Notes under the pieces: generated by a model
Told to the model about the DNA's origin: nothing
What the model saw: the letters and a program-made list of their open reading frames with translations, nothing else
The model's database searches: none
Shown: piece by piece, positions 1 to 62,777 of the stretch
Layout: each line of letters opens with the position of its first letter
Position numbering within the stretch: the stretch's first letter is position 1
Translations under genes and position numbers: made by a program
NCBI GenBank assembly: GCA_964525875.1
Contig: CAZGJS010000005.1
Location: forward strand, 143,184-207,183
DNA from: an uncultured Eubacteriales bacterium
GTDB taxonomy: Bacteria; Acidobacteriota; Aminicenantia; Aminicenantales; Saccharicenantaceae
Reading direction: 5' to 3'
Length of the DNA: 64,000 bases

Positions 1-403
1 CCATCACGGTCCTTATCCGTAGGAACGTATTCGGACCGTGATGACTAAATCACCGCTTTATGCTCCCTCCGACGACACCCCTCGGCCCCTTATGGCATCG
101 CGGGCAAGCGAGGATTGCGAATCTGTCCGTCGTTACCGATCTGACTAAAACAAGATATTTCCCGGAAGTGCGGCTCCGAGCTACTCCGCCGCGCTTTTAT
201 GAAATATCCGGATAAAGAAGGGCGATTCGTGCCGATCGGGGAAATTGCCGGCGCGAGCTTGAACCTCGGCGAGGAGGACAGCCGGACCCGACATTGGGAG
301 AGTTTAGCCGGGCAACGTGCCGGACGAAGGGAGTTTCAGGGGAAACCGCCAAAACGTGTTTGAGCTTGGCGTAGCGCACGCCAAGCGAGTTGTTTTGGCG
401 CCG
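1..403 (+). repeat. Composite palindromic repeat, copy R1 (left end cut by window edge): hairpin 2-43, module B 45-89, ~170-bp core, degenerate inverted B' ~262-307, module C 304-403
   Basis: Same module order and long direct matches to 18463-18903; module B also matches 31446-31490 and 62655-62700 (rc). Confidence 0.75.
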
Positions 404-5934: not shown

Positions 5935-6892
5935 AGACCGCGGCCAACCGGAGCGCCTCCTCCATGCTGCGGGGATCGGCGATACTCTTGCCGGCGATGT
6001 CGAAGGCCGTTCCATGGCCGGGGGAAGTCCGAACGAAGGGCAGGCCGAGCGTCGCGTTGACACCCGTGGCGAACGCATCGAGCTTGAAGGCGATGAGCCC
6101 GTGGTCATGGGTCAGGGCGACGACGACGGCCCCCAACTTCCCCAGGGCCTGAAGAAAGACGGTGTCCGGGGGGAAGGGCCCGGTTATCGGGACGCCGTCT
6201 CGCCTGGCCGCGTCGATGGCCGGTCTGATCTCCTCATCCTCTTCGCGCCCTAGGCTGCCGTCCTCGCCGGCGTGCGGGTTCAGCCCGGCCACGAGAAGCG
6301 TGAACGGTCCGCCGGGAATTTTCCCGAGCGCCCGGTGAAGCATCATAAAGAAGTCGCCCAGGGCGTCCTTGCGGACGGCGTCGACCGCCTCGTGCAGGGG
6401 CCGGTGATGAGTGAACAGGGCGACCTTGAGCCGTTCCGACCAGAAGGACATGATCGCCCCCGGGTAGAACTTCTCCAGGTATTCCGTGTGCCCCCGGAAG
6501 GGGTGACCGGCGAGAGCCCAGGCGGCCTTCGAGATCGGGGCGGTCACCACCGCCTCGAGGCGGCCGTTTCGAGCCCCGGCTACGGCCGTTTCGAAAAACC
6601 GGAAAGACGCTTCTCCGTTCTCCGCCGATACGCGGCCATGGACGGCCGCCCAGCCCGGAGCCGGGACGTGCGCGATGTACACCCCCGCCTCCCGCGGACC
6701 ATCGGGACGCCACTCCCGGGCGGCGAGCCGGAGACCGAGCCGCTTTTCCTCGGCCGCGACGATCCGGGAGTCGGCGAAGAGGACATAGGCGGCCGGCGGC
6801 AGAACGGACGGGCGCGACAGCGTTTTGACGACGACCTCGGGACCGATGCCGCCCGGATCGCCGGGGGTCACCCCGATCCTGGGAACGGTCAT
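5915..6892 (-). CDS. pdxA: 4-hydroxythreonine-4-phosphate dehydrogenase PdxA
   Basis: 325 aa from internal ATG 6892 (MTVPRIGVTPGDPGGIGPEV...); GLNPHAGE and TSPGHGTAFDIAG motifs. Confidence 0.9.
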   Translation of the reverse strand: MTVPRIGVTPGDPGGIGPEVVVKTLSRPSVLPPAAYVLFADSRIVAAEEKRLGLRLAAREWRPDGPREAGVYIAHVPAPGWAAVHGRVSAENGEASFRFFETAVAGARNGRLEAVVTAPISKAAWALAGHPFRGHTEYLEKFYPGAIMSFWSERLKVALFTHHRPLHEAVDAVRKDALGDFFMMLHRALGKIPGGPFTLLVAGLNPHAGEDGSLGREEDEEIRPAIDAARRDGVPITGPFPPDTVFLQALGKLGAVVVALTHDHGLIAFKLDAFATGVNATLGLPFVRTSPGHGTAFDIAGKSIADPRSMEEALRLAAVFSASGS

Positions 6893-16432: not shown

Positions 16433-18349
16433 CTAGCCGATCTTCACTTTCGTCCGGGCGACGCCGCCGCGCGTCGAGAGGATGGCGACGTCGGCCTCGC
16501 CGGCCGTGCCCGGCTTGATCTTGACCTTCCAGCGGACCTCTTTTTTCTCGTTTTGTTTGAGAAAGCCGATTTCCTGACGCCCCCTCACGCCGACGAGCTC
16601 GGCGCCCGCGGGAAGGCGGACCTCCGCGGTGTCGGGCCGGACGATCTTGACCCGGTCGGCCATCTTGAGGGCCGTGGGCAGGAAGCCCTCGTTGGTGAAA
16701 ACGGCGACGACCTCGAACGTGTCGGCCTCTTTCTTGACCGGCTTGATTTCGGCGGAGACGATCTTCACCTGGGGCAGGGACTTGGCCATGAAAAGGTTGA
16801 ATAGGGCCTCTTCCCTGATCCACTCCTCGAGGATCTCGACAGGCGGGTTTTGCCGCCAGTACTTCGGATTGAAGCCGCCGATCTCGACCTCGCCGAGCGT
16901 CGGGTGGATGGACTTCGTCCAGGGCTTGAAATAGCGGCCGCCGAGCTCCTCGTCGATATAACGAAGGCTCTCGAGGTCGGTGATGCGGCCGTCGCCGTCG
17001 TAGTCCTTGACCCGGCCGCCGTTCCACAGCTCGTCGCCGTACCAGACGGCGCCGTAATAGAGATAGCCGAAGTCCGGCGAATGGCCGAAGAGCGGTGAGC
17101 CTTGGGGCTCGCGCGGCATCTCGAAGCCTCTCTCGGCGGTCCGGGCCCGCATGTCGCGGTCGTCCCGGCCCTGATTGGCGTAGTCCCAGTACGTGTCGCC
17201 GGCGCTCGGGTAGCCGGTGATCTTTTTCCCCTGCTCGTCGAAGTACTGGTAGATCTTCATGTCCTCGGGGAACATGGATTCGCTCATGCGGCTCGTCGAC
17301 GGACCGTGGAGCAGCATGGGCACGGCCGTGTCCATGGTCTGGACGACGCTGACGTTGGGGTGCTCGAGGAGGAACGTGAAGACCGCCCGCGTCTCGGTCT
17401 CGGAGAGCGGATACTCGCCCGCCCCGCCCTGCGTCCAGCCGCGGCCGGTCATATCCAGGCCGGGCATCGGACGCCAGTTCTCCGGGTAGTTGCGGTGAAG
17501 GTCCAGGCCGCCGATACCGTCCTCGTTGGTCCGTCCGTCGCCGTCGTTGTCGACGCCCTCGGCCGAGACGATGTAATCGCCCTTGCCGTCGGTGGCCCGT
17601 TTCATCAGCCGGCCCGACGGGTCGGCCGGGTCGAGGATCATCGCGCCCTTGCCGGGCTCGACCTTTTTCCGCATCTGAAGGATGAAACCGTCGCCGTTGA
17701 GGTCCTCGGGCGGGTCCTCATCGAGGAGGCCGTCCCTGTCGTCGTCGTACGGGCGGACCGTGCTGCGGTTCGACTGGGCCGTGTTGAGATAGAGCTCGGA
17801 GCCGTCGGGGTTGTTCTTGACCCTGACGTAGATGGCCTTGGTGTCGACGAGCCTGGTCATTTCGGGGTCCTTGCCGTACGAGGAGAGGATGTGCCAGGCG
17901 AACCAGAGGGCGGACTCCGCTCCGGTGACCTCGCCGGAATGCCGGTTCCCCTCGATGAACATGGCCGGCTTGTCGGTGTCCTTCCCCGTGGACTTATTGG
18001 CGATCGTGATCTGCCAGATGTCGCGGCCCTCGAAGCTCTTGCCCACGGAATAAAGATCGACCAGGTTCGCGTATTCGGTCGCCCATTTCCGGAGAAAGGC
18101 GTTGACCTCGTCGTAGGTGTGATAATGGGCGAAGTCCATCTCGCCGGCGACCTTGGGCTTGGTGAAGGGCGTGTCGATCCTCGGGAAGTAGCTGATCCCA
18201 TGTCGGATACCGCCAACCGTGTACATCTTCGACGGCTTTGACTCCTGAGGTCCCCGTTCTCGCGGCCCCGGTTCTTGGGCTGAGGCGACGATGATGACGA
18301 TCGCAGCGATTGCCGCGGCCGGGCCAAGCTTCAAGGCGCGCTTATTCAT
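16433..18349 (-). CDS. M14-family metallocarboxypeptidase, secreted
   Basis: 638 aa, signal peptide; M14 zinc-site context (FIEGNRHSGEVTG) and C-terminal beta-rich domain; GAGGAGG SD before the ATG. Confidence 0.85.
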   Translation of the reverse strand: MNKRALKLGPAAAIAAIVIIVASAQEPGPRERGPQESKPSKMYTVGGIRHGISYFPRIDTPFTKPKVAGEMDFAHYHTYDEVNAFLRKWATEYANLVDLYSVGKSFEGRDIWQITIANKSTGKDTDKPAMFIEGNRHSGEVTGAESALWFAWHILSSYGKDPEMTRLVDTKAIYVRVKNNPDGSELYLNTAQSNRSTVRPYDDDRDGLLDEDPPEDLNGDGFILQMRKKVEPGKGAMILDPADPSGRLMKRATDGKGDYIVSAEGVDNDGDGRTNEDGIGGLDLHRNYPENWRPMPGLDMTGRGWTQGGAGEYPLSETETRAVFTFLLEHPNVSVVQTMDTAVPMLLHGPSTSRMSESMFPEDMKIYQYFDEQGKKITGYPSAGDTYWDYANQGRDDRDMRARTAERGFEMPREPQGSPLFGHSPDFGYLYYGAVWYGDELWNGGRVKDYDGDGRITDLESLRYIDEELGGRYFKPWTKSIHPTLGEVEIGGFNPKYWRQNPPVEILEEWIREEALFNLFMAKSLPQVKIVSAEIKPVKKEADTFEVVAVFTNEGFLPTALKMADRVKIVRPDTAEVRLPAGAELVGVRGRQEIGFLKQNEKKEVRWKVKIKPGTAGEADVAILSTRGGVARTKVKIG

Positions 18350-18423
18350 GTGACCTCCTCGCGAGAATGTAAAGCGGAGGATATTCGGAATGCGCGGTCA
18401 AGTCAACCGCCGGCGATGCCTGC

Positions 18424-19008
18424 GGGTCCTCGGGGATCGTCTCCGTCCGCTGCGGTGATTCTTCACGCCTTCCCGGTCCGGAGTCGATGGGAGGAGTCCG
18501 CGTCTCCGGTCCGGAAAGTCTAAATCACCGCTTTATGCTCCCTCAGACGACCCCCCTCGGCCCCGCTTGGCATCGCCGCGCAGAGTGCAGCGAATCTAGT
18601 CCTTGTTGCTCTTCCGACCCGATCAAAATATATAAAAGTATTGTGGCTTCAAGACGTTCCATCACATTTCTTATTGTTGCTTCGAAGATTCCGCTCTCTG
18701 CATCTCCTAAATATCACCTCCCCATCGGCATCGGGGCGCTCGCAGGAGGAGGCCGCGGGATAAAGGGGCTGAGAGGATCATCGGAGTGAGCATAGGCGGT
18801 GATTTAGCCGGGCAGCGTGACGGACGAGGGCAGTTTCAGGGGAAACCGCCAAAACGTGTTTGAGCTCGGCGTAGCGTACGCCGAGTGAGTTGTTTTGGCA
18901 CCGCTGGGGCGTGTGGATCCCAGGCCCCAGCGGTGTAAAAAATCACCGCAGCGAACGAAGATAATCCCCGAGGCCCCTCAGCGGCCGATGGAGCGGCACG
19001 CCCCGAGC
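18424..19008. repeat. Composite palindromic repeat, copy R2: A(rc) 18424-18460, hairpin 18473-18514, B 18520-18564, AT-rich core 18565-18756, B(rc) 18757-18807, module C 18804-18903, hairpin 18901-18932, A 18941-19008
   Basis: Nested inverted repeats read directly; modules recur at 1-403, 31352-31667, 62655-62775. Confidence 0.8.
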
Positions 19009-19089
19009 AGAAAAGGTGGAATTCTTCCAGGAAACCCCTCGGCCTTTTTTTAAACCGTGGCGAGAACGCTGACTTCTGAGCTACTCCGC

Positions 19090-19569
19090 TCAGTCCGGGA
19101 AGCTGATGAGGGCGACGGCGTAGCAAGCGATGGCCTGCTTCTCGCCGACCGGCCCCAGCCCTTCGTTGGTCTTGGCCTTGATGCCCAGGCTGGTCGCGGG
19201 GATCCCGAGGACGGGACAAAGGACCGCCTTCATCGCCGGGATGTGCGGGCCCATTTTCGGCTCTTCGGCCACGATGACCGAATCCACGTTGACGATTGCG
19301 GCGCCGCGTTGCCGCAGGAGCCCGACGACGTCCCCGAGGAGCCCCACGCTCCGCGCCCCCTTGAAAAGGGGGTCTGTGTCCGGGAAGAGGCCGCCGATGT
19401 CGCCCTCTCCGAGGGCCCCGAGGAGGGCGTCGATGACGGCGTGGGCCAGGGCGTCGCCGTCGGAGTGCCCGGCGAGGCCCGCTCGGAAAGGGATGTCGAC
19501 GCCGCCGAGGACGAGCTTGCGCCCGGCTTCCAGCCGATGGATGTCGTAGCCGAAACCTATCTTATGCAT
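19090..19569 (-). CDS. ispF: 2-C-methyl-D-erythritol 2,4-cyclodiphosphate synthase
   Basis: 159 aa; GYDIHRL and GHSDGDALAHA motifs. Confidence 0.95.
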   Translation of the reverse strand: MHKIGFGYDIHRLEAGRKLVLGGVDIPFRAGLAGHSDGDALAHAVIDALLGALGEGDIGGLFPDTDPLFKGARSVGLLGDVVGLLRQRGAAIVNVDSVIVAEEPKMGPHIPAMKAVLCPVLGIPATSLGIKAKTNEGLGPVGEKQAIACYAVALISFPD

Positions 19570-20227
19570 CGAGAAGCCCCTCCGCGATTTTCAAGTCGAC
19601 CGGTGTGGTGATCTTGATATTGCGCGGGTCGCCCTCGACCGTGCTTACCGGGATGCCCGCCCGCTCGGCGAGCATCGCTTCGTCCGTGCCGTAGAACCTG
19701 TCCCGGCGGGCCTGATCCAGGGCTTTCTTCAGCACGGCGTAAAGGAACCCCTGGGGGGTCTGCGCCCGCGCGAGAAAGGTCCTGTCGACCGTCCCGACGA
19801 CACGACCGTCCCGGACCTCCTTGACGGTTTCTTCGAGCGGCAGGATGGGCACGGCCGCCCCGGCGGCGCGGGCCGCGGCGATGACCCGGCTGACGAGGCC
19901 GGCGCTCACGAGCGGCCTGGCCCCATCGTGGACCAGAACGACATCCGCCGTCGCGGCATCGAGAAGGCGGAAGCCCTGCCAGACCGAGTCCTGACGTCTC
20001 TCGCCGCCGCGGACGATGTCGACGATCTTGGGGTAGCGCATCCGGTAGTGTTTCAGGTCCTGTTCATCGGGGAGGACGAGGGCGACGGCGTCCACCTCGC
20101 CATGGGCCTGGAACGCTTCGAGCGTCCATTCGAGGACGGGTTTGCCCCGCAGGTAGGCGAACTGCTTCATCTCGCCGAAGCGCTTGCCGGCCCCGGCCGC
20201 GACGACGATGGCCGACGCCCGGCTCAC
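19562..20227 (-). CDS. ispD: 2-C-methyl-D-erythritol 4-phosphate cytidylyltransferase
   Basis: 221 aa from GTG 20227 (GTGA overlap with the upstream stop); [13 protein letters not shown] motif; 8-nt overlap with ispF. Confidence 0.9.
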
Positions 20228-21213
20228 TTGGACTCTCCGTTGAAGCGGCCGAAGATCATCTTCCCGACCGTCGTCTGGAGGACGGAGGTGACGGTGATGT
20301 CGACCGTCTGGCCGATCATTCGCCGCGAGTTGTCGACCACAACCATGGTGCCGTCGTCGAGGTAGGCGACGCCCTGTTCTTTTTCCTTGCCCTCCTTGAG
20401 AATGAACACGTTCATGGTCTCGCCCGGCAGGGCCACCGGCCGCAGCGAGTTGACGACCTCGTTGATGTTGAGGACCTTGATGCCCTGGATGCGGGCGACC
20501 TTGTTCAGGTTGTAGTCGTTGGTGACGATCTTGCCGTTCATGGACCTGGCGCATTCGATGAGCTTGGAGTCGACGTCGGGGGTCTCGGGGAAGTCCAGGT
20601 CGGAGATGACGACCTCCACCTGGGAGGATTTCTGGAGACGGTCGATGACGTCGAGGCCGCGCCGGCCCCGCTGCCGCTTCAGCCCGTCCGCGGAGTCGGC
20701 CACGAACTGGAGCTCCTTGAGGACGAACTGGGGGACGATGAGCGTACCCTCGACGAACCCGGTGTCGCAGAGGTCGGCGATTCGGCCGTCGATGATGACG
20801 CTCGTATCGAGGATCTTAAAGCTGCGGCCGGCCCGTTTCTCCTTGAACAGCCCGATGAGGTGGGCTGGGTCGAGCCACTCCGGCTTCCGCGTCCCGACGA
20901 GGAGCCCGATGTAGGGCATGATGGCCAGGAAGAAGATGCGGATGAAGGTGGCCATCTCCGCTGTGTGGACGACGGACTGGTAGATCGCGCCGAGCATCCA
21001 GCCGAGGAGGATGCCGGCGAGCAGGCCCATGCCGGCGCTCCAGATGACCCGGAACTGGGCCTTCCGTATTCGGGTCTCCAGGAACATCATCAGGGCGCCC
21101 AGGAAGAAGGCCGCGGCGGCCCCGTAGGCCCCGTTGAGCCTGAAGGGCGGATAGAAGTAGCCGCCGATCGTGATCAGACCGATGATGAAGAAGCGGAAAA
21201 TGAAAAGGCCCAT
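20224..21213 (-). CDS. PIN/TRAM domain membrane protein (YacL-like)
   Basis: 329 aa; 4 N-terminal TM segments, PIN domain ([12 protein letters not shown]), C-terminal TRAM-like domain. Confidence 0.85.
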
Positions 21214-21238
21214 AAGTTCTTTCCTTATATAAATGGGA

Positions 21239-22597
21239 TCAAAAAACGTGGTCGAGGGCTTGGCGGACGGTCTTCGCGCCCACGCACTGGATCGCCGGCA
21301 GGTCTTGTTTGTCCAGCCCGGCCAAGTTGCCGGCCGGGAGGAGGACGGTCCCGAAACCCAGGGAATGGGCCTCCTTGATCCGGACCAGCGGCTGGTTGAC
21401 GGAGCGGATCTCGCCGCTGAGGCCGACCTCCCCGAAGAAGACCATGTCCTGGGGCAAGGGCACGTTCTTGAGGGAGGAGACGACGGCCATGACGACGCCC
21501 AGGTCGACGGCGGGCTCGTCGATAGACATCCCCCCGGCTACGTTGAGGTAGATGTCCTCGCCGGCGAAGCTATATCCGGCCTTCTTCTCGACCAGGGCGA
21601 GGAGCATGGCCGCCCGGTAATGGTCGAGGCCGATGGTCATGCGCCTGGGGTTCCCCGTGAAGATCGTCGAGGAAACGAGGGCCTGGATCTCGGCGAGGAG
21701 AGGCCGGGTCCCCTTGACCGTGCAGACGACGGCGCTGCCGGCCTCCTCGCGCGGCCGTTCGCGCAGAAAGAAGGCCGAGGGGTTGAGGATGGGCTGGAGC
21801 CCCGCGGCCGTCATCTCGAAAACCGCCAGTTCCGACACGGGTCCGAACCTGTTCTTCATGGCTCGAAGGACGCGGTGGCTGTGGTCCCTCTCGCCCTCGA
21901 AAAGGAGGACGACGTCGACGATGTGCTCGAGGGATTTCGGCCCGGCCAGCGTCCCGTCCTTGGTGATGTGGCCGACCAGGAAGGTCGGGACCTGTCTGTT
22001 CTTGGCGTAGCGGATGATCTGGTTGGCCGCCTCCCGGACTTGGCTGATCGTCCCCGGTCCCGAGGTCATCTTGGCCGAGAAAACGGTCTGGATGGAGTCC
22101 ACGATGAGAATCTTGGGCGCGAGGCGCTCGGCCTGGGCCAGGATGCGCTCGAGGTTGGTCTCCGCCAAGAGGAAAAGACGGCCGTCCCGGACTCCCAGCC
22201 GGTCCCCCCTGAGCTTGATCTGCTCCAGGGATTCCTCCCCGGAAACGTAGAGGACCGTGGCCTCCCCGGCGGCCATGTCCCGGGCCACCTGGAGGAGGAG
22301 AGTCGACTTGCCGATGCCGGGCTCGCCGCCGACGAGGACGAGAGAGCCGGAAACGAGGCCCCCGCCGAGAACCTTGTTGAAGTCCTCGATGCCGACGGTG
22401 AGCCTCTGGCGAGGGATGTCCTGGATATCCTTGTAGAGGACGGGCTCGGTCGGGGCGTAGCTGATGCCGCCGGACGGGGTCTCGTCCTCGACCTCTTCGA
22501 CGAGGGTGTTCCACTCGCCGCAGGCGTGGCAGCGGCCCATCCACTTCGGCGAGCGGGAGCCGCAGCTCTGGCAGATGAAAACCGTTTTGTCCTTCAT
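21239..22597 (-). CDS. radA: DNA repair protein RadA
   Basis: 452 aa from ATG 22597; zinc finger CQSCG...CHACGEWN, Walker [15 protein letters not shown] motif, Lon-like C-terminal domain. Confidence 0.95.
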
Positions 22598-29840: not shown

Positions 29841-31352
29841 ATGAGAAAAAGCCTGTGGCTTCTGGCCGGGATGACGGTCGTGGCCTTGACCCAGGCGGCG
29901 GGCCAGGGCCTCCGGCCGGCGGCCTTCGCCGGCCTGTTCTACGCGGCCGACCCGGCCCGTCTGGCGGCCGAGATCGAAAGCTATTTCGCGGCCGCCGCTC
30001 CGGCCGACCCGCCCTCCGGCAAGATCTTGGCCCTCATCGTTCCGCACGCCGGCTACGTGTATTCGGGCCGGACGGCCGCCGCGGCCTACGCCCTGGTCCG
30101 GGACAGGGCGATCGACACGGTCGTCATCATCGGCCCGTCTCACCGTGTCGCGTTCGAGGGCTGTTCCATTTGGCCCGACGGCGGCTTCGAAACCCCGCTC
30201 GGAGTCGCCCGCGTCGACGCCTCCCTGGCCCGGGAAATCGCCAAGGCCTCGGGTTTCCGGTTCCGGCCCGAAGCTTTCGCCGAAGAACACTCGGTCGAGG
30301 TCCAGGTCCCCTTCATCCAGAAAGCCCTGCCCGGGGCGGCCATCGTCCCCATCGTCATGGGCCGCCAGACCTCCTCGACCATCCGGACCATGGCCGCCGC
30401 GCTGGGGAAAACCTGCCTCGCGAAAAACGTCCTCGTCGTGGCCTCGACGGACCTGTCCCATTTCCTGCCGAAGACCGAAGCGCAGGCGACCGACGCTGCG
30501 ACGGCCGCGCTCATCCGGGCCGTGGACACGGAAGATCTCATCCGCAAAACCGAGGCCGGGGAGAATATCATGTGCGGCGGCGGTCCCGTCGCCGCCGTCC
30601 TCCTTCTGGCCGGGAAAGCGGGCCAAGCCCGGGTCGAGGTCCTTGCCCGGACCGATTCGTCCGGCTTCGGCGGCCCGGTCGTCGGTTATCTCGCCGCAGT
30701 CGTCCTCTCCGGAACAGGCCCCGGCCTTGCCAAGGCCGGGACTGCCGGTTTCCAGCACCGGCACTGCAAAGCCGGTGGGAAGCCCGGTCCCGGAGAGGGC
30801 GACTACGGCGCGTACTCGCTCACGCCGGAAGAAAAAACCGAACTCCTCCGCATGGCCCGGGCGTCCGTGACCGCATCCTTTGGAAGGCGGGAGGCGATCG
30901 ATGACGCCTCCGGAAAGGCGAAGTTCTTGGAGCCGCGAGGCGTGTTCGTGACGCTCACGAAAGGCGGGGACCTGCGCGGGTGCATCGGATTCATCGAGCC
31001 GGTCGCCCCGCTGGGCCGGGCCGTCATCCGGGCGGCGGTCTCTGCGGCGACCGAGGATCCGCGTTTCCCTCCCGTCCGGCCCGCCGAGATCAGGGACCTC
31101 AAGTTCGAGATCTCCGTTTTGACGCCGGTCCGGGAAATCTCCGACCCGCGGGAAATCGTAGTCGGGAAGCACGGGCTGGTCGTTTCCAGGGGTGAGCATA
31201 AGGGCCTTATCTTGCCCCAGGTCCCGATGGAGAACAAGTGGGACCGAAAAACCTTTCTCGAGCAGGCCTCGCTCAAGGCCGGCCTGCCGCGGGACGCCTG
31301 GCGGCTGGGCGCCAAGCTCTACGTCTTCGAGGCCATCGTCTTCCACGAGTAG
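29841..31352 (+). CDS. Memo (AmmeMemoRadiSam protein B) - AMMECR1 (protein A) fusion protein
   Basis: 503 aa; N-half Memo (AGLFY..., IVPHAGYVYSG, STDLSH), C-half AMMECR1 (GVFVTLTKGGDLRGCIG, HGLVV...GLILPQV); halves joined by a repeat-encoded linker. Confidence 0.85.
   Translation: MRKSLWLLAGMTVVALTQAAGQGLRPAAFAGLFYAADPARLAAEIESYFAAAAPADPPSGKILALIVPHAGYVYSGRTAAAAYALVRDRAIDTVVIIGPSHRVAFEGCSIWPDGGFETPLGVARVDASLAREIAKASGFRFRPEAFAEEHSVEVQVPFIQKALPGAAIVPIVMGRQTSSTIRTMAAALGKTCLAKNVLVVASTDLSHFLPKTEAQATDAATAALIRAVDTEDLIRKTEAGENIMCGGGPVAAVLLLAGKAGQARVEVLARTDSSGFGGPVVGYLAAVVLSGTGPGLAKAGTAGFQHRHCKAGGKPGPGEGDYGAYSLTPEEKTELLRMARASVTASFGRREAIDDASGKAKFLEPRGVFVTLTKGGDLRGCIGFIEPVAPLGRAVIRAAVSAATEDPRFPPVRPAEIRDLKFEISVLTPVREISDPREIVVGKHGLVVSRGEHKGLILPQVPMENKWDRKTFLEQASLKAGLPRDAWRLGAKLYVFEAIVFHE
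30736..30793 (+). repeat. Hairpin repeat E, copy 1 (inside CDS, in frame)
   Basis: 35-nt core tgccggtttccagcaccggcactgcaaagccggtg (30743-30777) is 34/35 identical to 56762-56796; flanking stem ccgggac/gtcccgg. Confidence 0.65.
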
Positions 31353-31667
31353 GCCTCGGGGTATCATCGACGTCCGCGCGGTGATTCTTAACGCATTCCC
31401 GGTCCGGATCCGATGGGAGGAGTCCGCGTATCCGTACCGGGAAAGCTAAATCCCCGCTTTATGCTACCGTCGACGATACCCCTCGGCCCCGGAAAGCGAA
31501 AAAAGGGGACACGTCCCGCTTCTCTCGAAGCGGGGCATGTCCCCGGGCCCCCTTGGCGGTTTCCCCTGAAACTCCCCTCGTCCGTCACGCTGACCGACTA
31601 AATCACCGCAGCGAACGGAGACGATGCCCGAGGACCCTCAGCGGCCGATGGAGGGATTACCCCGAGC
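31352..31667. repeat. Composite repeat, copy R3: A(rc) 31352-31386, hairpin 31398-31441, B 31446-31490, hairpin 31505-31544, C 5' half (rc) 31551-31598, A 31601-31667
   Basis: Direct matches to modules of R1/R2/R4; begins at the last base of the upstream stop codon. Confidence 0.75.
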
Positions 31668-35526: not shown

Positions 35527-35555
35527 TTGAAATGACCTTCCCGTAGTGCTATGAT
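35527..35555 (+). promoter_or_regulatory. Sigma70-type promoter candidate for dnaA
   Basis: TTGAAA (35527-35532) - 17 nt - TATGAT (35550-35555). Confidence 0.55.
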
Positions 35556-35595
35556 TCGCAGGCCTCCCCCGGTCGGATCTATTGCCCGGAGAGGA

Positions 35596-35627
35596 TTTTC
35601 CACAGATGTGGAAAAATCTGTGGATAA
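35596..35627. promoter_or_regulatory. Cluster of three DnaA boxes in the dnaA leader
   Basis: TTTTCCACA (35596-35604), TGTGGAAAA (35607-35615), TGTGGATAA (35619-35627; rc = perfect TTATCCACA). Confidence 0.65.
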
Positions 35628-35640
35628 ATTAGCTGTACCC

Positions 35641-36972
35641 ATGGAACCTAAAGAAAATCAAAACCTTTGGACACAAATCCTCCGGGCCGTCGAAACCAAG
35701 GTCGACCCCAACTCGTTCGAGACCTGGTTCGATCCGACGAGCTTCATCGGCCAGGAACAGGATTGCTTGTACATCAAGGTCCCGAATTCCTATTTCCGCG
35801 ACTGGCTGTCCTTCCATTATTCGACCATCATCAACGAATGTTCCCAGGACCTCTTCGGTAAAACCTTTGACGTCCGCTACATCCACGACGACACGCCGTC
35901 GTCGTTCATGAGGCGCTCGCCGGACGAGAGGAAGACCAAGCCGGGCCAGACCATCAATCCTAACCTCAATCCCAACTACACCTTCGAGAACTTCGTCGTC
36001 GGCAGCTGCAACCAGTTCGCCCACGCGGCCGCCCTGGCCGTGGCCAAGAACCCGGCCAAGTCGTACAACCCTCTCTACATCTACGGCGGGGCGGGCCTCG
36101 GCAAGACGCATCTCATGAACGCCATCGGCCACTTCAACCTCCAGCAGAACGAGCGGAACAAGATTCTCTACGTCACCACCGAAAAATTCATGAACGACCT
36201 CATCAACCACCTCCAGTACGGCAAGGTCCTCGAGTTCCGCGAGAAATACCGGAGCGTCGACGTTTTGTTGATCGACGACATCCATTACCTCTCCGGCCGG
36301 GAGCGGACGAAAGAAGAATTTTTCCACACCTTCAACCACCTTTATGACAGCCAGAAGCAGATCGTCATTTCGAGCGACTGCCCGCCCAAAGAGATCCCCC
36401 ATCTCGAGGACCGTTTCCGATCCCGGTTTGAATGGGGCCTAATCGCCGACCTCAAGCCGCCGGATATCGAGACGCGCATCGCCATCCTCAAGAAAAAAGC
36501 CGAGGCCGAAGCGGTCTTCCTTCCCGAGAGCGTGGGCCTCTACATCGCCGATAAAGTCCAGTCCAACATCCGGGAGCTCGAGGGCTACTTGAGGCGGGTC
36601 ATCGCGTTCGCCTCGCTCAAGGGCGAGAAGATCGATCTGGACCTGACCAAGGAAGCTCTCAAGGGCCTTCTCGACTCGTCGACGACGATCGTCACTGTGG
36701 AAAAGATCCAGAAACTCGTCTGCCATAAGTTCAAAATCAAGCCTTCCCAGCTCAAGTCAAAAAACAACTCCCCCAAGATAGCCTTCCCCCGGCAGATCGC
36801 CATGTACCTGGCCAAGGAGCTGACCAAGTCATCCCTTCCCGAAATCGGCAAGAAATTCGGTGGAAAACACCACACGACGGTCATATACAGCGTCCGCAAG
36901 ATCGACAAGCTTCGGACCGACGATCCCGAATTCAACAAAGAGATCAACAGCCTCCTGGCCTTCATCCAATGA
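35641..36972 (+). CDS. dnaA: Chromosomal replication initiator protein DnaA
   Basis: 443 aa from ATG 35641; Walker A GGAGLGKTHL, box VII, C-terminal DNA-binding domain (HTTVIYSVRKI). Confidence 0.95.
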   Translation: MEPKENQNLWTQILRAVETKVDPNSFETWFDPTSFIGQEQDCLYIKVPNSYFRDWLSFHYSTIINECSQDLFGKTFDVRYIHDDTPSSFMRRSPDERKTKPGQTINPNLNPNYTFENFVVGSCNQFAHAAALAVAKNPAKSYNPLYIYGGAGLGKTHLMNAIGHFNLQQNERNKILYVTTEKFMNDLINHLQYGKVLEFREKYRSVDVLLIDDIHYLSGRERTKEEFFHTFNHLYDSQKQIVISSDCPPKEIPHLEDRFRSRFEWGLIADLKPPDIETRIAILKKKAEAEAVFLPESVGLYIADKVQSNIRELEGYLRRVIAFASLKGEKIDLDLTKEALKGLLDSSTTIVTVEKIQKLVCHKFKIKPSQLKSKNNSPKIAFPRQIAMYLAKELTKSSLPEIGKKFGGKHHTTVIYSVRKIDKLRTDDPEFNKEINSLLAFIQ

Positions 36973-37106: not shown

Positions 37107-38204
37107 ATGAAATTCTCAATCCCGAAGGAAGCTTTCCTGGAAGAACTCCAACTCCTCCAGGGGATCGTCGAAAAACGGAACACCATGCCCATCCTGGCCA
37201 ACATCCTGATGAACGTCTCGCCGTCGGACATCGAACTGACGGGAACGGACCTCGAGGTCGGGATGAGGACGCATCTCGGGGCGGCCATCGATAAAGCCGG
37301 GGCGATCACGGTTAACGGCAAGAAGATATTCGAGATCGTCAAATCCCTGCCGGAAGGGCAGACCGTCCAGGTGGAAAAGGTCGACGACAACATCGAGATC
37401 AAGTCGGGCGATAGCGAGTTCAAGATCATGTGCCTGCCCAAAGAGGATTATCCCCAGGTCCCTGAGCCGAAGTTCGAGAAGGGCATCCAATTGGCGCTAA
37501 AGGACCTCAACGACATGATCGACCGGGTTTACTACGCGATCACCCAGGAGCAGAGGTATTATCTCAACGGGGCCCAACTTACGCTCAAGAACCGGCAGAT
37601 CGAACTCGTCAGCACGGACGGACACCGCCTGTCGTATACGAAAAAGGCCCAGGACGGGCTGAAACTCGAGCAGGAAATCAGCGTCATCGTGGCCAAGAAG
37701 ACGCTCAACGAGATAAGGAAATTCGATGACGAAACGGTCGAGTTCGACCTCGACGAGAACAACCTTTTCTTCAAGGTCGGGCAGCGAACCCTCATATCCC
37801 GGATCATCGACAGCAAATTCCCCAACTATCAGGCGGTCATCCCCAAGGACAACCCCGGCCGGCTGGCCGTTTCGCGCGAAGAGCTGGCCAATGCCATCCG
37901 GCGCGTGTCCCTCCTCTCCGCCGAGCGGTCGAAGGGGATCAAGTTCACCATCGAGAAGAACCGGATGAGGCTGTTCTCCTCCAACCCCGAGATCGGGGAG
38001 GCGCGCGACCGGCTGGCCGTCGAGTACAAGGGCCAGGACCTGGAGATCGGGTTCAACGCCCAGTATCTGCTCGACTTCCTTACGGCGGTCGCGTCCGAAC
38101 GGGTCGTCTTCGAGATCAAGGACGAGAACAGCGCCGTCCTGCTCAAGCCGGAGGCCGAGGAAGGCATCACCAACATCTACGTCCTGATGCCGATGAAGAT
38201 CTGA
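37107..38204 (+). CDS. dnaN: DNA polymerase III beta sliding clamp
   Basis: 365 aa, three-domain clamp, typical N-terminus MKFSIPKEAFLEELQLLQGIVEKRNTMPIL. Confidence 0.95.
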   Translation: MKFSIPKEAFLEELQLLQGIVEKRNTMPILANILMNVSPSDIELTGTDLEVGMRTHLGAAIDKAGAITVNGKKIFEIVKSLPEGQTVQVEKVDDNIEIKSGDSEFKIMCLPKEDYPQVPEPKFEKGIQLALKDLNDMIDRVYYAITQEQRYYLNGAQLTLKNRQIELVSTDGHRLSYTKKAQDGLKLEQEISVIVAKKTLNEIRKFDDETVEFDLDENNLFFKVGQRTLISRIIDSKFPNYQAVIPKDNPGRLAVSREELANAIRRVSLLSAERSKGIKFTIEKNRMRLFSSNPEIGEARDRLAVEYKGQDLEIGFNAQYLLDFLTAVASERVVFEIKDENSAVLLKPEAEEGITNIYVLMPMKI

Positions 38205-49566: not shown

Positions 49567-49628
49567 AGAGGGACTGTCCCCTTCAGAGGGACTGTCCCTC
49601 TGAAGGGGACAGTCCCTCTTTTATTTCG
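49567..49628 (+). terminator. Intrinsic terminator: perfect 53-nt palindrome plus T-run
   Basis: 25-bp stem 49567-49591/49595-49619 with 3-nt loop, followed by ttttattt; sits between the convergent GNAT-like gene and polA. Confidence 0.7.
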
Positions 49629-52308
49629 CGTCGGCCCAGTTCGGGCCGAAGCCCAGGCGGACCTTGAGCGGGACCAGGAGCTCGGCCGCTCCCTCCATGG
49701 CCTCACGGACCAGGGGCTCGACCTCCGCTTTTTCCCTTTCGGGGACCTCGAAAACGAGTTCGTCGTGGACCTGGAGGATCATCCGCGTCCGCAGCCTCCG
49801 GGCCTCGAGCTCCCGGGCGGCGCGAAGCATGGCCTCCTTGATGAGGTCGGCCGCCGAGCCCTGGATGGGATTGTTGAGGGCGATCCGTCGCCCGGCCTGT
49901 TGGAGGGACCTGTCCGGCATGCGCAGCTCCGGGACCTGCCGTTTCCGGCCGAAGATCGTCTCGGAATAGCCCCGCTCACGGGTCTCCTCGACGACCCTGT
50001 CGAGGTACGCTTTGACACCCGGGAGTTCGCCGAAGTAGCGGTCGATGAATTTTTGGGCTTCGGCCGCCGATGTCCCCAACTCCTTGGCAAGAGAAAAGGC
50101 CGAGGTCCCGTAGACGATGCTGAAATTGATGATCTTCGCCCGCCGCCGCGTCTCCTCCCCGGCATTATCCCCGAAGACGAGCCGGGCGGTCTCCTCGTGG
50201 ACGTCCCGGTCCTCGAGGAACGTGGCGATGAGCTTGGGGTCCTGCGAGAGATGGGCCAGGACGCGCAGCTCGACCTGGGAATAGTCGGCGGCCAGCAAGA
50301 CGTGCCCCTTGTCCGGGATGAAGGCCCGGCGGAAGCGCGCCCCCCACGGGCCCCGGGCGGGGATGTTCTGGAGGTTCGGGTCGCTCGACGACAGGCGGCC
50401 GGTGGAGGCCACGGTCTGGTTGTAAGAGGTGTGGATGCGGCCCGTGGCCGGGTCGATGAGCAGGGGCAGGGCGTCGGCATAGGTCGACTTGAGCTTGGAC
50501 ATCTGCCGGTAATCGAGGACGTGACGGGCCAGCGGATGGGCCGCGGCCAGCTCTTCGAGGATGTCGAGGGACGTGGAAAAACCCTTGGTGATCTTCGTCC
50601 GCCGGACGGATGGCAGACCCAGCTTGTGGAAAAGGATGTCGCCCAGCTGGCGGGGCGAGTTGATGTTGAAGGCGCCTCCGGCGAGCGCGTGGATCTCCTT
50701 CTCCAGGCGTCCGAGCTCCCCCCCCAACTCCTTGGACATGGACTTCAGCACCTCGGGGTCGACGCGCACGCCCCATATCTCCATCCGGGCCAGGAGCCCG
50801 ATGAGCGGCCGTTCGATATCTTCGTAGAGCCGGTCGAGCTTCTTGGCCTCGATTTTCTCCCAGAGGACGGCGCCGAGCTTCAGGGCCAGGGCGGCGTCCT
50901 GGCAGGCGTACGGGGCGGCCCGCTCGATCTCGACCTTGTCCATCGTCAGCTCCTTCTTCCCCCGGCCGACGATGTCCTCGTAGGGCGCCTTGGTCTCCTG
51001 GAGGTAATGGAGGGCCAGCTTCTCGAGGCCGTGCCGGCCCCAGTTCGGTTCGAGAAGATAGGACAGGACCATCGTGTCCCTGGAGACCCCGCCCAGGCGC
51101 ACGCCCTCGCGCTCGAGGACGATGAGGTCGTACTTGATGTTCTGGCCGATCTTTCGGACGGCCGGGTCCTCCAGGACGGAGCGGAGGATGTCCAGGGCGC
51201 GCTCCTTGGGGATCTGGAGCGGGGCGCCCAGGTAGTCGTGGCCGACGGGGACGTAGAAGGCCTCTCCCGGGACGAGGGAAAAGGACAGCCCGACAAGGCG
51301 GGCCCGGGTCGGGGAGGCGCTGTCGGTTTCCGTGTCCAAAGCCACTTCTCCGGCCGCGGCGATCCGGGCGGCCAGCGCCCGGAGCTCGTCCTCCTCGAGG
51401 ATCGTATGGAATTCTTTTTCGGCCGGGAGCCGCGGCTTCTTCAGAAAGTCGGCGAGGAGAGAGGAGAACTCGAGCTCCTGGAAAAGCCGGACGGTCTCCT
51501 TCTCGTCGGGCTCCTGGACGGCGTAACGCGCGAGGTCCAGCTCGAGGTCGAGGTCGCGGGTCACCGTGACCAGCCGCCGGCTGAGCTCGAGGAGCTCCCG
51601 GTTCTGGATGATCCTCTCCCGGACGCGGGGGTTTTTGACACGGTCGATGTTCCGGAGGAGGTTGTCGAGGGAACCGAACTCCTGGATGAGGGATTTGGCC
51701 GTCTTCTCGCCGATCCCGGGAACGCCGGGGACGTTGTCCGTAGGGTCGCCCCAAAGGGAGAGGACGTCGACGACCTCCCCGGCCCCGACCCCGAAGACGC
51801 CCTTGACGCTCCCCGCGTCGATGGTCGTTTCCTTCGACGGATTCCAGATGGACGTCATGGCGTCGACGACCTGGAGGAGGTCCTTGTCCGTGGTCACGAT
51901 GACGGTCAGGATCCCCTTCGCGGCCGCCCGCGCGGCCAGCGAGGCCAGGGCATCGTCGGCCTCGTACTTCGGGTACTCGGCCGTGGCCACCCGCAGGGCC
52001 CCGAGGACGTCCTTGAGGACCGGGAGCTGGGCGGCGAGGTCCTCGGGCATCGGCTTGCGGTGGGCCTTGTATCTTTCGGATTCCTTGCGGTCTTTGGTCT
52101 CCTCATGGCGGAACGTCGGTCCCTCGACATCGAAAACGACGCCCAGATAGTCGGGTTTTTCCTTGTCGACGATCTTCCGCAGGGCGTTGAGGAAGCCGTA
52201 GATGGCGCCCGTCGGGAAGCCGCCGGAATTGGCGAGGCCCTGGATGGCGTAGTAGGAACGGTAGAGGAGGGAATGTCCGTCGATGAGGAAGAGGCGTTTC
52301 GGACTCAG
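49621..52308 (-). CDS. polA: DNA polymerase I
   Basis: ~895 aa; 5'-nuclease (LFLIDGHSLLYRSYY), 3'-5' exo-like and polymerase (motif A DYSQVELR, motif B, QVHDELVFE) domains; start codon uncertain (CTG at 52308 is the only candidate near the conserved N-terminus). Confidence 0.9.
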   Translation of the reverse strand: MSPKRLFLIDGHSLLYRSYYAIQGLANSGGFPTGAIYGFLNALRKIVDKEKPDYLGVVFDVEGPTFRHEETKDRKESERYKAHRKPMPEDLAAQLPVLKDVLGALRVATAEYPKYEADDALASLAARAAAKGILTVIVTTDKDLLQVVDAMTSIWNPSKETTIDAGSVKGVFGVGAGEVVDVLSLWGDPTDNVPGVPGIGEKTAKSLIQEFGSLDNLLRNIDRVKNPRVRERIIQNRELLELSRRLVTVTRDLDLELDLARYAVQEPDEKETVRLFQELEFSSLLADFLKKPRLPAEKEFHTILEEDELRALAARIAAAGEVALDTETDSASPTRARLVGLSFSLVPGEAFYVPVGHDYLGAPLQIPKERALDILRSVLEDPAVRKIGQNIKYDLIVLEREGVRLGGVSRDTMVLSYLLEPNWGRHGLEKLALHYLQETKAPYEDIVGRGKKELTMDKVEIERAAPYACQDAALALKLGAVLWEKIEAKKLDRLYEDIERPLIGLLARMEIWGVRVDPEVLKSMSKELGGELGRLEKEIHALAGGAFNINSPRQLGDILFHKLGLPSVRRTKITKGFSTSLDILEELAAAHPLARHVLDYRQMSKLKSTYADALPLLIDPATGRIHTSYNQTVASTGRLSSSDPNLQNIPARGPWGARFRRAFIPDKGHVLLAADYSQVELRVLAHLSQDPKLIATFLEDRDVHEETARLVFGDNAGEETRRRAKIINFSIVYGTSAFSLAKELGTSAAEAQKFIDRYFGELPGVKAYLDRVVEETRERGYSETIFGRKRQVPELRMPDRSLQQAGRRIALNNPIQGSAADLIKEAMLRAARELEARRLRTRMILQVHDELVFEVPEREKAEVEPLVREAMEGAAELLVPLKVRLGFGPNWADAK

Positions 52309-52550
52309 TCGTACCTGCCTTCGACGATCTGTCCCAGGATCGTCTTGTGCTGGTCCTCCATCATCCGTTCGATCCGCTCCGCGACGTCGGGCAGGTTCAT
52401 GTAGGCGGTGTAAAAGGCCCTCTTGGAGGCGAGCAGCCGCCCCGACTTGTAGATGAACGATTCGACGTACTGGGCCGCGAGCCCTTTGTCCTGGGTCTGG
52501 ACGTTGTAGGCGTCCCCCCTGTATTCCACCCGGGTGTTGTAACCGCTCAT
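52305..52550 (-). CDS. Hypothetical 81-aa protein
   Basis: ATG with GAGGGGGG upstream; stop overlaps the putative polA start (CTGA); no family recognised. Confidence 0.5.
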   Translation of the reverse strand: MSGYNTRVEYRGDAYNVQTQDKGLAAQYVESFIYKSGRLLASKRAFYTAYMNLPDVAERIERMMEDQHKTILGQIVEGRYD

Positions 52551-52621
52551 GAAGGTCGTCCCCCCTCATTATACCTCTCCGGGCGGCCGGTTCAAGCCCG
52601 ATTTCCCCGGCCTGGGCGAAT

Positions 52622-52649
52622 TTGACAACCCGGTCCCACTTGGTATAAT
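52622..52649 (+). promoter_or_regulatory. Sigma70-type promoter candidate (extended -10) for yceD-rpmF-plsX operon
   Basis: TTGACA (52622-52627) - 16 nt - TATAAT (52644-52649), with TG at 52641-52642. Confidence 0.55.
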
Positions 52650-52677
52650 AAGGTGAAAATTTTTTGAGGACGGTCAT

Positions 52678-53208
52678 TTGGACACCACGATGCTGATTGA
52701 TATCGACCGCATGCCGAAGGAAGGCCTCCGCCTGTCCAGGGATTTCGAGTTCCTGAACCTGGACCTGGTCGAGGAGAACGCCGTCTTCCTCGAGCCGGCC
52801 CACGCCGAGGTCGCCGTCCGCCTCATCGGCGAGGAGATCCTCGTCCGGGGCGAGATCACGGCCCGGCTGAGCTTCGTCTGCTCGCGCTGCCTGACCCCGT
52901 TCGAATTCCCCGTGGCCAGCAAGTTCGACCTCGTCTACCTCCCCGAGGAGCTCGACGCTCTGTCCGAGGAGCTGTCCGACGAGAAGATCGACCAGAGGTA
53001 CTACAGCGGCCGCCAGCTCGACCTGCGGGCCGTCGTCCTCGAGCAGCTGAACCTGACCTTCCCGGCGAAGCCCCTGTGCGCGGCCGGCTGCGAGGGGATC
53101 TGCGCCGTCTGCGGCGAGCTCATCTGCGACGCCAAGTGCTCGTGCCTCGTCAAAGAGTCCGATTCCCGTTGGAATGAAATCAAATTCAACGTGAGAGACA
53201 AGAGTTAA
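52678..53208 (+). CDS. yceD: YceD/DUF177 family protein
   Basis: 176 aa, TTG start after GAGGA; Cys motifs CSRC...C...CAVCG; classical position before rpmF-plsX. Confidence 0.88.
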   Translation: MDTTMLIDIDRMPKEGLRLSRDFEFLNLDLVEENAVFLEPAHAEVAVRLIGEEILVRGEITARLSFVCSRCLTPFEFPVASKFDLVYLPEELDALSEELSDEKIDQRYYSGRQLDLRAVVLEQLNLTFPAKPLCAAGCEGICAVCGELICDAKCSCLVKESDSRWNEIKFNVRDKS

Positions 53209-53391
53209 ATGCCTAATCCAAAGAGACGCCATTCGCCGGCGAGAAAAGGGAAACGCCGGGCCCACGACGGGCTCACCCTTCCCACCTTCTCCGTCTGCCC
53301 CAAGTGCGGCAACCCCAAGCTGCCGCACCGGGCCTGCCCCGAGTGCGGGCACTACAAGGGACGGCAGGTGACGGAAGGGACAGAAGACTGA
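53209..53391 (+). CDS. rpmF: 50S ribosomal protein L32
   Basis: 60 aa; MPNPKRRHSPARKGKRRAH...CPKCG...CPECG. Confidence 0.93.
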   Translation: MPNPKRRHSPARKGKRRAHDGLTLPTFSVCPKCGNPKLPHRACPECGHYKGRQVTEGTED

Positions 53392-53405
53392 CCCGGGTCT
53401 CGTGC

Positions 53406-62775: not shown

Positions 62776-62777
62776 CT

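Follow-up and report, generated by a model that had tools for sequence, protein, structure and literature searches.

A nested cluster of dispersed palindromic repeats, resembling REPIN, BIME and ERIC elements, between the M14 peptidase and ispF genes of an Aminicenantia genome

Introduction

Among the short noncoding repeats described in bacteria, REP and BIME sequences favor the 3' ends of genes and convergent gene pairs, while copies of the enterobacterial ERIC element have been reported with TA target duplications (PMC3184786). BIMEs are built of E. coli-type REP (PU) units, which are bound by IHF, gyrase and Pol I, and ERIC has been linked to mRNA stability. Here, we describe a repeat family that resembles these elements, found in a 64,000-nucleotide stretch (the window) of contig CAZGJS010000005.1, from the assembly of an uncultured bacterium of the class Aminicenantia. 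The 740-base gap between the genes for an M14 peptidase and IspF holds two copies of an element that we name U, and further copies occupy three other gaps of the window. With a probability of about 0.62, we interpret the locus as a cluster of noncoding, nonautonomous, palindromic interspersed repeats belonging to a REPIN/BIME/ERIC-like family that spreads as DNA.

An initial annotation of the window had proposed that the gap holds a nonautonomous foldback element like a MITE (miniature inverted-repeat transposable element), a REP/BIME-like 3' untranslated region (3' UTR) element, or a structured RNA locus. The first two proposals are in essence borne out by the dispersed, palindromic and polymorphic repeats, divided into subfamilies and assembled into mosaics, that we describe below.

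Results

Two facing U copies enclose a decayed repeat

The gap runs from the start of the M14 peptidase (carboxypeptidase) gene (16433-18349, minus strand) to the stop codon of ispF (19090-19569, minus strand), both confirmed with Pfam. Its sole open reading frame (ORF) of 100 amino acids (18487-18789) runs through the repeats and has no Pfam family match, in agreement with the initial view that the gap holds no credible ORF. Most of the gap, from 18412 to 19008, is a nested palindrome of interspersed repeats in which two U copies lie tail to tail around the relic of a second repeat, M2. U copy 1 (18412-18577, plus strand; nhmmer match 18417-18577, E = 2.5e-46) is a long imperfect hairpin made of the reverse complement of module A, A(rc) (18428-18460), an apical cassette termed H1 (18473-18514) and module B (18520-18564), with an outer stem in which GGCGATGCC (18412-18420) pairs with GGCATCGCC (18569-18577). 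U copy 2 (18722-19008, minus strand; nhmmer match 18991-18743, E = 6e-23) is a long form whose apex carries an extra module C and hairpin; in plus-strand coordinates it comprises a right-end extension (18722-18756), B(rc) (18757-18807), module C (18803-18903, with an inner hairpin at 18864-18886), a hairpin (18898-18937), A (18941-18975) and an outer extension (18976-19008).

The modules named in the initial annotation are real. A repeat finder recovered the outer A(rc)/A inverted repeat with 50-nt arms (18420-18469 and 18932-18981, 82% complementary), B and B(rc) have an exact 12-mer in common and align over ~45 nt with indels, and the order A(rc), hairpin, C, B read on the minus strand was correct. 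The extent of the units had been drawn too small, in that they include the outer stem of copy 1 and, at 18722-18756, part of what had been assigned to the core. The suggestion that A(rc), the hairpin at 18473-18514 and B fold on themselves also holds, as they form one long hairpin of -94.5 kcal/mol (z = -4.9; z = -6.5 for the opposite strand), and 18404-19010 as a whole can also fold as a nested A:A/B:B structure.

Between the two U copies (18578-18716, plus strand), BLAST identified a decayed M2 (hairpin and tail, 18616-18708) preceded by an inverted M2 tail (~18578-18612), and the core is thus itself palindromic, with the M2 copy accompanied by an inverted copy of its own tail. Matches of the core to other M2 copies were found in five related loci (L026, L013, L091, L058 and L030; L numbers denote loci and contigs compared with the window) and at 152-196 of the window. 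The M2 copy differs from the M2 consensus by 37 substitutions, of which 29 are GC-to-AT and 4 AT-to-GC, and by this comparison is a mutationally decayed, apparently unconstrained relic. The AT-richness initially noted for the core (18565-18756, 51.6% GC versus 63.4% for the window) results from this GC-to-AT decay.

Independent short-read contigs match the composite exactly at both edges (18350-18457 and 18856-19089) and terminate within the repeats. Two Logan contigs (L097 and L098) match the window identically from 19089 to 18856. We note that these and a third Logan contig (L099), which derive from samples SRR13723393 and SRR13723397 and represent the same strain, have their ends precisely within U arm A and module C.

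U is a single element that maintains its hairpin

The combination of A(rc), hairpin and B is a single element, an imperfect hairpin of 140 to 240 nt with the layout [CGCTCGGGGTATTCCCGCCG][TCGGCCGCGGAGG]GGCCTCGGGGATCGTCTCCGTCCGCTGCGGTGATT-CTTCACGCC-[apical hairpin]-CTAAATCACCGCTTTATGCTCCCTCCGACGACACCCCTCGGCCCC[TTCTTCCGCGGCCTCC][TCTGGGAAYACCCCTRCGCG], where bracketed sequences are outer layers. It consists of two conserved arms, a conserved asymmetric internal loop, an exchangeable apical hairpin cassette and up to three further outer stem layers, which are present in long forms and missing from both arms together in short forms. Arm A contains a local 7-bp hairpin and arm B has none. Both arms carry the 9-mer GCGGTGATT / AATCACCGC, recognized initially as common to all modules: AATCACCGC occurs 9 times in the window versus 0.55 expected, a count reached in 0 of 100 shuffles, and all 9 occurrences lie in the four repeat-bearing gaps. 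Of 185 9-mers, 155 are paired within ~110 nt. The apical cassettes fall into at least four types, all of them hairpins: H1 is the most frequent, H2 is found at 62.7 kb, H3 at 2-44, and the hairpin with module C in U copy 2. An interpretation of the cassettes as independent elements was ruled out, as they occur almost only inside U, and we therefore treat them as subfamily markers.

A profile search found ~5.5 U copies in the window, at 18417-18577 (plus), 18991-18743 (minus), 31340-31493 (plus), 62778-62641 (minus) and 2-100 (plus, cut), together with a half unit at 31652-31599. As had been claimed from inspection, the modules thus recur in other large gaps (1-403, 31340-31667 and 62641-62778); on a Pfam-supported gene map, the four repeat-bearing gaps are four of the largest intergenic gaps in the window. 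Self-BLAST aligned 18428-18565 with 31354-31491 (84%), 18501-18903 with 26-403 (66%), 18940-19008 with 31600-31667, and 18428-18564 with 62771-62658. Module C at the locus is 91% identical to 303-403 and is also present in L004, L005, L066, L013 and L053.

We tested pairing in 61 full U copies, taking as the structure the fold of their majority consensus; the automatic consensus of RNAalifold missed the long hairpin, and the majority consensus was folded and tested explicitly instead. The long-hairpin model leaves 88% of cells paired, versus 38 to 50% when the partners are slid by 1 to 3 columns, an excess that is partly built in because the structure was derived from the consensus. The same does not apply to the double changes and the symmetric layer deletions: 28 of the 56 pairs show changes on both sides, amounting to 141 cells versus 44 ± 6 in shuffles. 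U keeps its hairpin via compensatory changes and the symmetric loss of layers.

U is dispersed across Aminicenantia and polymorphic

An exact 20-mer seed from module B matched at least 95 stretches, and 94 of those listed lie in Aminicenantes-type metagenome-assembled genomes (MAGs), covering ~24 species-level genomes. These MAGs are labeled Aminicenantes, Aminicenantia or Acidobacteria, or are mislabeled bins with the same sequences. The exception is a chance match in a Moellerella MAG (L084, 544-560) with no repeat unit around it, which gives a gauge of the false positives. With nhmmer, we found 118 distinct U matches in 0.74 Mb. In viral contigs, the arm B seed had no match and a lone arm A match (L096, 3731-3750) was due to chance, with no unit around it. 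No blastn match of U was found in 5,426 E. coli genomes, and none was found in plasmid or phage DNA. The literature searched yielded no published description of Aminicenantia repeats, and neither did Rfam. The U family is specific to the class Aminicenantia and undescribed. It is divided into subfamilies by diagnostic changes along the whole unit, and nonorthologous copies within the JAWOHF genome are 96 to 98.6% identical, versus an all-pair mean of 81%.

The initial annotation had proposed looking in related genomes for further copies, empty sites and insertion polymorphism, and all of these were found. One site, directly after a stop codon, is filled with U in L001 and L025 and empty in L026. 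Within the window, 52574-52618 is a 44-nt empty site, at which L038 has ~470 nt of U and other repeats. In the ispF-M14 gap, L009 (flanks 88 to 95% identical) has just 178 nt with a single U in the opposite orientation, bounded by the same inverted flanks, GCGATGCC...GCATCG; in L095, one U lies beside ispF and a truncated outer shell encloses other content; and L069 has a U like copy 1 of the window, the same U being split by a 165-nt insertion in L021. Between apgM and amiC, the close relative L059 carries U inverted, in a long form with a different apical cassette, and the more distant L077, L081 and L049 share the orientation of L059 but have a short apical hairpin. The orientation of U thus differs between related genomes at two loci, ispF-M14 and apgM-amiC; at the latter, the different cassette of L059 indicates replacement rather than inversion. 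Relic and truncated U copies are common. A metagenome scan with the M14 promoter flank, aimed at orientation among near-identical strains, gave no matches, and exact-protein look-ups returned only short contigs ending in repeats. Taken together, U is dispersed, polymorphic between related genomes and split into subfamilies, and the filled and empty sites, the flipped or exchanged copies and the near-identical paralogues point to mobile DNA.

A REP-RAYT system in the same lineage

When E. coli RayT (NC_000913) was compared with six-frame ORFs of the loci, there was one match, in L044. The relatives of this protein form a large PF01797 family, in which several members are labeled Aminicenantes transposase or REP-associated tyrosine transposase (RAYT). 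The gene is single and syntenic in four Aminicenantes-type genomes, beside GH42, RlmN and an SSF transporter, and such single-copy, syntenic placement is a hallmark of RAYTs (bioRxiv 10.1101/2021.07.10.451892). The main RAYT loci number ~25 (L101-L130; e.g., L101 2881-3675, L103 2914-3680 and L106 2863-3675). We note that the main RAYT with its flanking repeats resembles a REPtron-type arrangement not described for the lineage.

A metagenome scan with a RAYT protein alignment recovered 80 more loci, and the arm B seed was present in none of these 80. One group of RAYT paralogues (L162, L163, L174, L176, L179 and L181) is flanked by GGGGACAYGTACC...GGTACRTGTCCCC hairpins, and in three of these loci (L174, L176 and L179) the paralogue has GGGGACAYGTAC hairpins and M2 copies around it, as well as U fragments or variants no more than ~200 nt away. 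The flanks there contain a truncated U or a diverged U-like unit with a short hairpin as its apex; the same short hairpin type is found in the window at 31505-31545, between U modules. These gene and repeat arrangements indicate that the lineage has a classic REP-RAYT system, which lies physically interspersed with U and M2 in the manner of BIMEs; for a specific link between U and a RAYT they are no more than suggestive. We also observed at these loci (L176 1960-2480; L179 3100-3605; L174 2290-2450 and 3110-3260) that the RAYT paralogue is followed by ~19-nt tandem direct repeats (AAAGACCGGGGACACGWA), and these arrays by GGGGACAYGTACC hairpins, M2 copies and a U-like unit with such a hairpin at its apex.

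Interpretation and alternatives

If the cluster is a REPIN/BIME/ERIC-like family, U copies would spread, or be exchanged, at the DNA level by way of an intermediate with a single-strand hairpin or a cruciform, and an enzyme would act on them in trans, the leading candidate being a REP-associated tyrosine (HUH/Y1) transposase of the kind carried by these genomes. Template switching or recombination between copies could then produce both the nested symmetric layers and the orientation flips. What maintains the hairpin may be the propagation mechanism, quasi-palindrome template switching, or the two combined. At the locus studied here, the cluster probably has only side effects, in that long hairpins come to lie on the 3' side of ispF, a short distance upstream of the M14 promoter.

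Several observations weigh against this interpretation. Conservation of U peaks in its interior and unpaired loops and fades at the ends, the reverse of a typical transposon, and this pattern hints at a selected function; the invariant arm B 20-mer served as the search seed, and its conservation is therefore partly ascertainment. In 0.67 Mb around the copies, no recurrent ORF family or transposase adjoins U: the only multilocus ORF cluster beside U copies is the translated repeat itself, and the genes between two convergent pairs of U copies are ordinary. The main RAYT has AAATCGGGGACACAATACC upstream in one or two copies, an inverted copy downstream and no U nearby. In a REPIN system, the repeat itself borders the cognate single-copy RAYT gene. 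The RAYT orthologues in L101-L130 have GGGGACACAATAC repeats on their flanks and no U; because of this different flanking sequence, we rejected a pairing of the main RAYT with U. The proximity of U to RAYT paralogues could be due to chance, since it is seen at 3 of 6 paralogue loci only and two of these are near-identical, and the mobilizing enzyme of U is a candidate only, unproven. All data come from MAGs, and the middle of the composite (18458-18855) is without independent assembly support. Finally, U is biased toward promoter-bearing regions, which a neutral parasite would not obviously be: the intergenic regions with U comprise 28 divergent, 37 tandem and 2 convergent (n = 67), against 57, 264 and 83, respectively, without U in the same loci (chi-square p = 2e-8), as assigned by a home-made gene caller based on GC3 and checked in the window by comparison with Pfam-supported genes, itself a weakness. 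The odds ratio is 4.4 for divergent regions (p = 6e-7) and 0.12 for convergent regions (p = 1e-4). This bias reflects either an insertion preference for promoter-side DNA or selection. The REP/BIME-like part of the initial proposal stands, and its "3' UTR" part is too narrow, since 28 of the 67 U regions lie between divergent genes and are without any 3' end; copies are mostly in promoter-carrying regions. We rejected a replication-strand bias, based on GC skew, as marginal (p = 0.047) and confounded by gene orientation.

U could instead be an ordinary cut-and-paste MITE, an internally deleted insertion sequence derivative with the same terminal inverted repeats that is moved by a DDE transposase with target-site duplications. 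U is small and noncoding, and its inverted arms form a long stem-loop, in accordance with the definition of MITEs (PMC3184786); the presence/absence polymorphism and near-identical paralogues would also be explained. We nevertheless consider this origin unlikely. No target-site duplication was detected when L001 and L025 were compared with L026 or at 78 aligned ends, where filled and empty sites are only ~87% identical and the true ends uncertain, and the lack of a visible duplication is as expected for HUH-type elements. The termini of U are its least conserved part and occur at several alternative layers. No transposase adjoins any copy examined, and neither a full-length copy with a transposase, which the initial annotation had thought worth seeking, nor a parent insertion sequence with U ends was found in the 0.67 Mb around copies or in the window. 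In the window, Pfam searches of ~70 ORFs found no transposase, integrase, reverse transcriptase or Cas family, as the initial annotation had stated for the 64 kb.

It is likewise unlikely, in our judgment, that U is a host-selected DNA element at promoters, i.e., a platform bound by a dedicated or nucleoid protein, a supercoiling-sensitive cruciform for such a protein, or an invertible switch, that is kept by selection and not by transposition. Such a role would fit the divergent enrichment and convergent depletion given above, the conservation of the unpaired motifs of U across ~24 species, and the fact that at two loci close relatives carry U in flipped orientation, set between inverted repeats that flank it. 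It would also fit the spacing of the units, whose ends lie at a median of 109 nt from facing start codons. At the studied locus, a sigma-70-like M14 promoter, TTGACT-17-TATCCT (18378-18406, minus strand), identified by a consensus promoter scan, lies outside the repeats between the gene start and the cluster, with a unit end 18 nt from its -35 box, and its sequence is kept in the syntenic loci L009, L095 and L069. AATCACCGCTTTA is a putative likeness of the IHF consensus WATCARNNNNTTR, from which it differs at one position. However, U contains no promoter-like site in the consensus scan, the window encodes no recombinase or invertase, one of the two flips is a replacement with a different apical cassette, and relic and truncated copies are common. 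The context bias, though it persists, is also weaker when the background is limited to regions of at least 100 nt (35 divergent, 88 tandem and 18 convergent). A bolder version, which we regard as quite unlikely, is that U is no selfish DNA but a class-wide selected hairpin or cruciform module by promoters, with conserved asymmetric loops, that would be recognized by a protein dedicated to it (a domesticated HUH enzyme, perhaps) and would act as a supercoiling-responsive or invertible regulatory device whose cassettes tune each locus.

The very stable hairpins (z = -4.9 to -7.2) and compensatory changes of U would also be expected if U or the whole locus were a structured RNA, whether a small RNA gene or a cis-acting mRNA element involved in RNase cleavage or 3'-end protection, as for ERIC and REP. 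Where U faces a stop codon, it usually begins ~0 to 60 nt from it, and tandem-context copies of this kind are therefore probably cotranscribed. Other properties of U make an RNA function very unlikely. Among stem mismatches, G:U (80) and A:C (97) are about equal, with two doubtful apical pairs set aside, and in tandem gene contexts U has 20 sense and 22 antisense copies; the pairing thus lacks the wobble asymmetry between strands and the orientation bias of a transcript. When compared with Rfam 15 at gathering and permissive thresholds, the window, the gap and 11 related loci yielded only tRNAs and no match for U, M2 or C. Given these results and the ~40% of U regions that lie between divergent genes, the palindromy is best explained at the level of DNA, where it could form a hairpin in the single-stranded state or a cruciform. 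The structured RNA locus that the initial annotation had placed in the AT-rich core does not hold up, as its plus-strand promoter (TTGCTC/TATATA) is missed by the consensus scan and lies in the decayed M2 relic. The locus is not supported as an RNA gene.

That the nested composite at 18.4 to 19.0 kb is an assembly artifact, with copies from different loci misjoined, is highly improbable: short-read assemblies do break exactly at these repeats and leave the middle of the composite uncovered, but independent contigs agree with both edges at every base, U copies lie between the same genes in four other genomes, and a parallel composite exists at 1-403.

Other repeats and features of the window

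The start of the window cuts this parallel composite (1-403, plus strand; BLAST and nhmmer), which consists of H3 (2-44), B (46-90), M2 (~140-230) and C (303-403). A second gap contains a U copy (31340-31493, plus strand; nhmmer E = 1.6e-43) directly after the TAG stop codon of a Memo-AMMECR1 gene, with its conserved core beginning at 31353. It is followed by a short REP-like hairpin, GGGGACACGTCCC...GGGGCATGTCCCC (31505-31545, no strand assigned), identified from its sequence as the type flanking RAYT genes of the lineage, and by a half unit (31553-31667, minus strand; nhmmer 31652-31599, E = 3e-9) composed of a partial C (31553-31609) and an arm A with outer extension (31601-31667). The copy at 62641-62778 (minus strand; nhmmer E = 1.9e-31) has the short cassette H2 and abuts the apgM stop codon; its fold has z = -7.2, and the stem runs into the flanks. 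The last ~16 nt of apgM are duplicated in inverted form beyond this copy (62641-62657 versus 62776-62795), such that the hairpin extends into unique sequence. We infer that this duplicate is the sort of product that fold-back priming or template switching would leave.

M2 is a second dispersed hairpin repeat, with the consensus AGATATTTCCCAGAAGTGCGGCTCCGAGCCGCTCCGCCGCACTTCTGCCGGTCGCTCC.AAGA.TCCGCTCCCTGCCGG. Its intact copies show compensatory changes of their own, and one site is filled with M2 in L058 and lacks it in L022. In clusters, U, M2 and C are interspersed with one another and with GGGGACA-type REP hairpins. Another palindromic family (...GGGAACCAGTCCCGGCGGTTCCCCCGTCCCGCTTCTCTCGAAGCGGGACGGGTCCCCC...) is represented at 58670-58790 of the window and recurs in 10 other loci (e.g., L090, L032, L082, L024 and L004); part of it matches window positions 31512-31544. 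A further repeat (...CCCCCATCCGTGCTCGCCGCTCC...GCGCGGGTGGGGGGCCCCC...) occurs in L014 (reverse complement of 6100-6660), L038 (2270-2820) and L021 (5640-6368), and in L014 it is enclosed by U outer arms in place of their usual interior.

The ispF 3' flank (19009-19089, minus strand) appeared on sequence inspection to be mostly unique over its ~80 nt. L009 has a wholly different sequence here, though on the ispF/ispD side it matches window 19088-22432 at 94.7% identity. Within the flank, at ~19036-19052 (plus strand), a lone B-end-like CCCCTCGGCC runs into seven T residues; it resembles the end of arm B plus a plus-strand terminator tail, and there is no plus-strand gene upstream of it. A sigma-54 reading of the GGCATCGCC flank of U copy 1 was rejected, as its spacing, judged by eye, does not match that of the consensus.

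Among the ~70 window ORFs searched, Pfam recognized housekeeping genes only, including rnpA-yidD-yidC-jag, dnaA, dnaN, dnaB, polA, genes for ribosomal proteins and fatty acid synthesis, and a complex-I-like module. The region of the replication origin is probably included in the window. We observed rnpA-yidD-yidC-jag at 0.5 to 3.6 kb, dnaA at 35551-36972 and dnaN at 37107-38204 (within 34.5 to 38.2 kb), and the cumulative GC skew has a local minimum at ~36 to 37 kb. The mechanically called 1,268-amino-acid ORF over polA (49621-53427) is overextended, as the Pol I domains begin at about residue 378. The divergent promoter region at 52553-52677, with a perfect TTGACA-17-TATAAT, is the empty counterpart of the U-filled site in L038.

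Implications

Aminicenantia are without a cultured model, and U is an undescribed repeat family in this class. The family explains why short-read assemblies break at such sites, the repeats fragmenting Aminicenantes MAGs, and its copies are ready strain markers. It is also a warning against annotating such intergenic structure as RNA genes. Together with the coresident REP-RAYT system, U offers a natural test of how palindromic repeats grow and move and of whether RAYTs serve more than one repeat family.

Comparison with known systems

MITEs (PMC3184786) share with U a size below ~400 bp, many dispersed copies, the absence of a transposase gene inside, terminal inverted repeats and a long stem-loop, but the outermost ends of U are its least conserved part. 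Correia elements of Neisseria and BOX elements of pneumococcus are likewise small dispersed repeats with long stem-loops. Correia elements are often near promoters, but have 26-bp terminal repeats, a TA duplication and promoters of their own, none of which were seen in U. BOX has a modular A-B-C build (PMC3184786), but its modules are arranged in tandem, not nested as in U. Unusual for REP/MITE-type repeats in general are the symmetrically lost concentric layers of U, its nonequivalent arms with a conserved loop, its exchangeable apices and its promoter-side bias.

The ERIC elements (also termed IRU) of Enterobacteriaceae resemble U more closely, being long imperfect palindromes (~127 bp for ERIC) that are intergenic, occur in either orientation and are conserved family-wide. 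According to Wilson and Sharp (2006), ERIC size variants reportedly arise via insertions and deletions at discrete internal sites, as in U. ERIC belongs to another lineage, U has no match to the enterobacterial consensus, and no TA target duplication was seen for it. The BIMEs of E. coli, intergenic mosaics in which palindromic units alternate in orientation and are interspersed with further short conserved motifs, are matched by the clusters in which U occurs. The two differ in that U has no sequence similarity to BIMEs or to the REP units that compose them, that U units are far longer, and that U avoids convergent gene pairs.

Like U, the REPINs of Pseudomonas and Enterobacteria have two conserved inverted units around a spacer that is variable in length and sequence yet always a hairpin (PMC3337134, PMC3116915, bioRxiv 10.1101/2021.07.10.451892). 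REPINs are also extragenic, number dozens or more per genome, persist across related species and leave no target duplication, with none seen for U either; palindromic by-products and a host lineage with single-copy, syntenic RAYT genes are further points of likeness. In contrast, U measures 140 to 240 nt versus ~100 nt, its arms A and B are nonequivalent around a conserved internal loop, it has several concentric stem layers, and the main RAYT is flanked by another repeat. Each REPIN unit holds a short imperfect palindrome (REP), to which the 7-bp hairpin of arm A, but nothing in arm B, may correspond in U. U is a member of none of these families, because it lacks similarity to E. coli, plasmid or phage sequences, a different repeat flanks the main RAYT, and target duplications are unseen. 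By analogy, U appears to work like a REPIN or ERIC-type element, and its clusters look like BIMEs.

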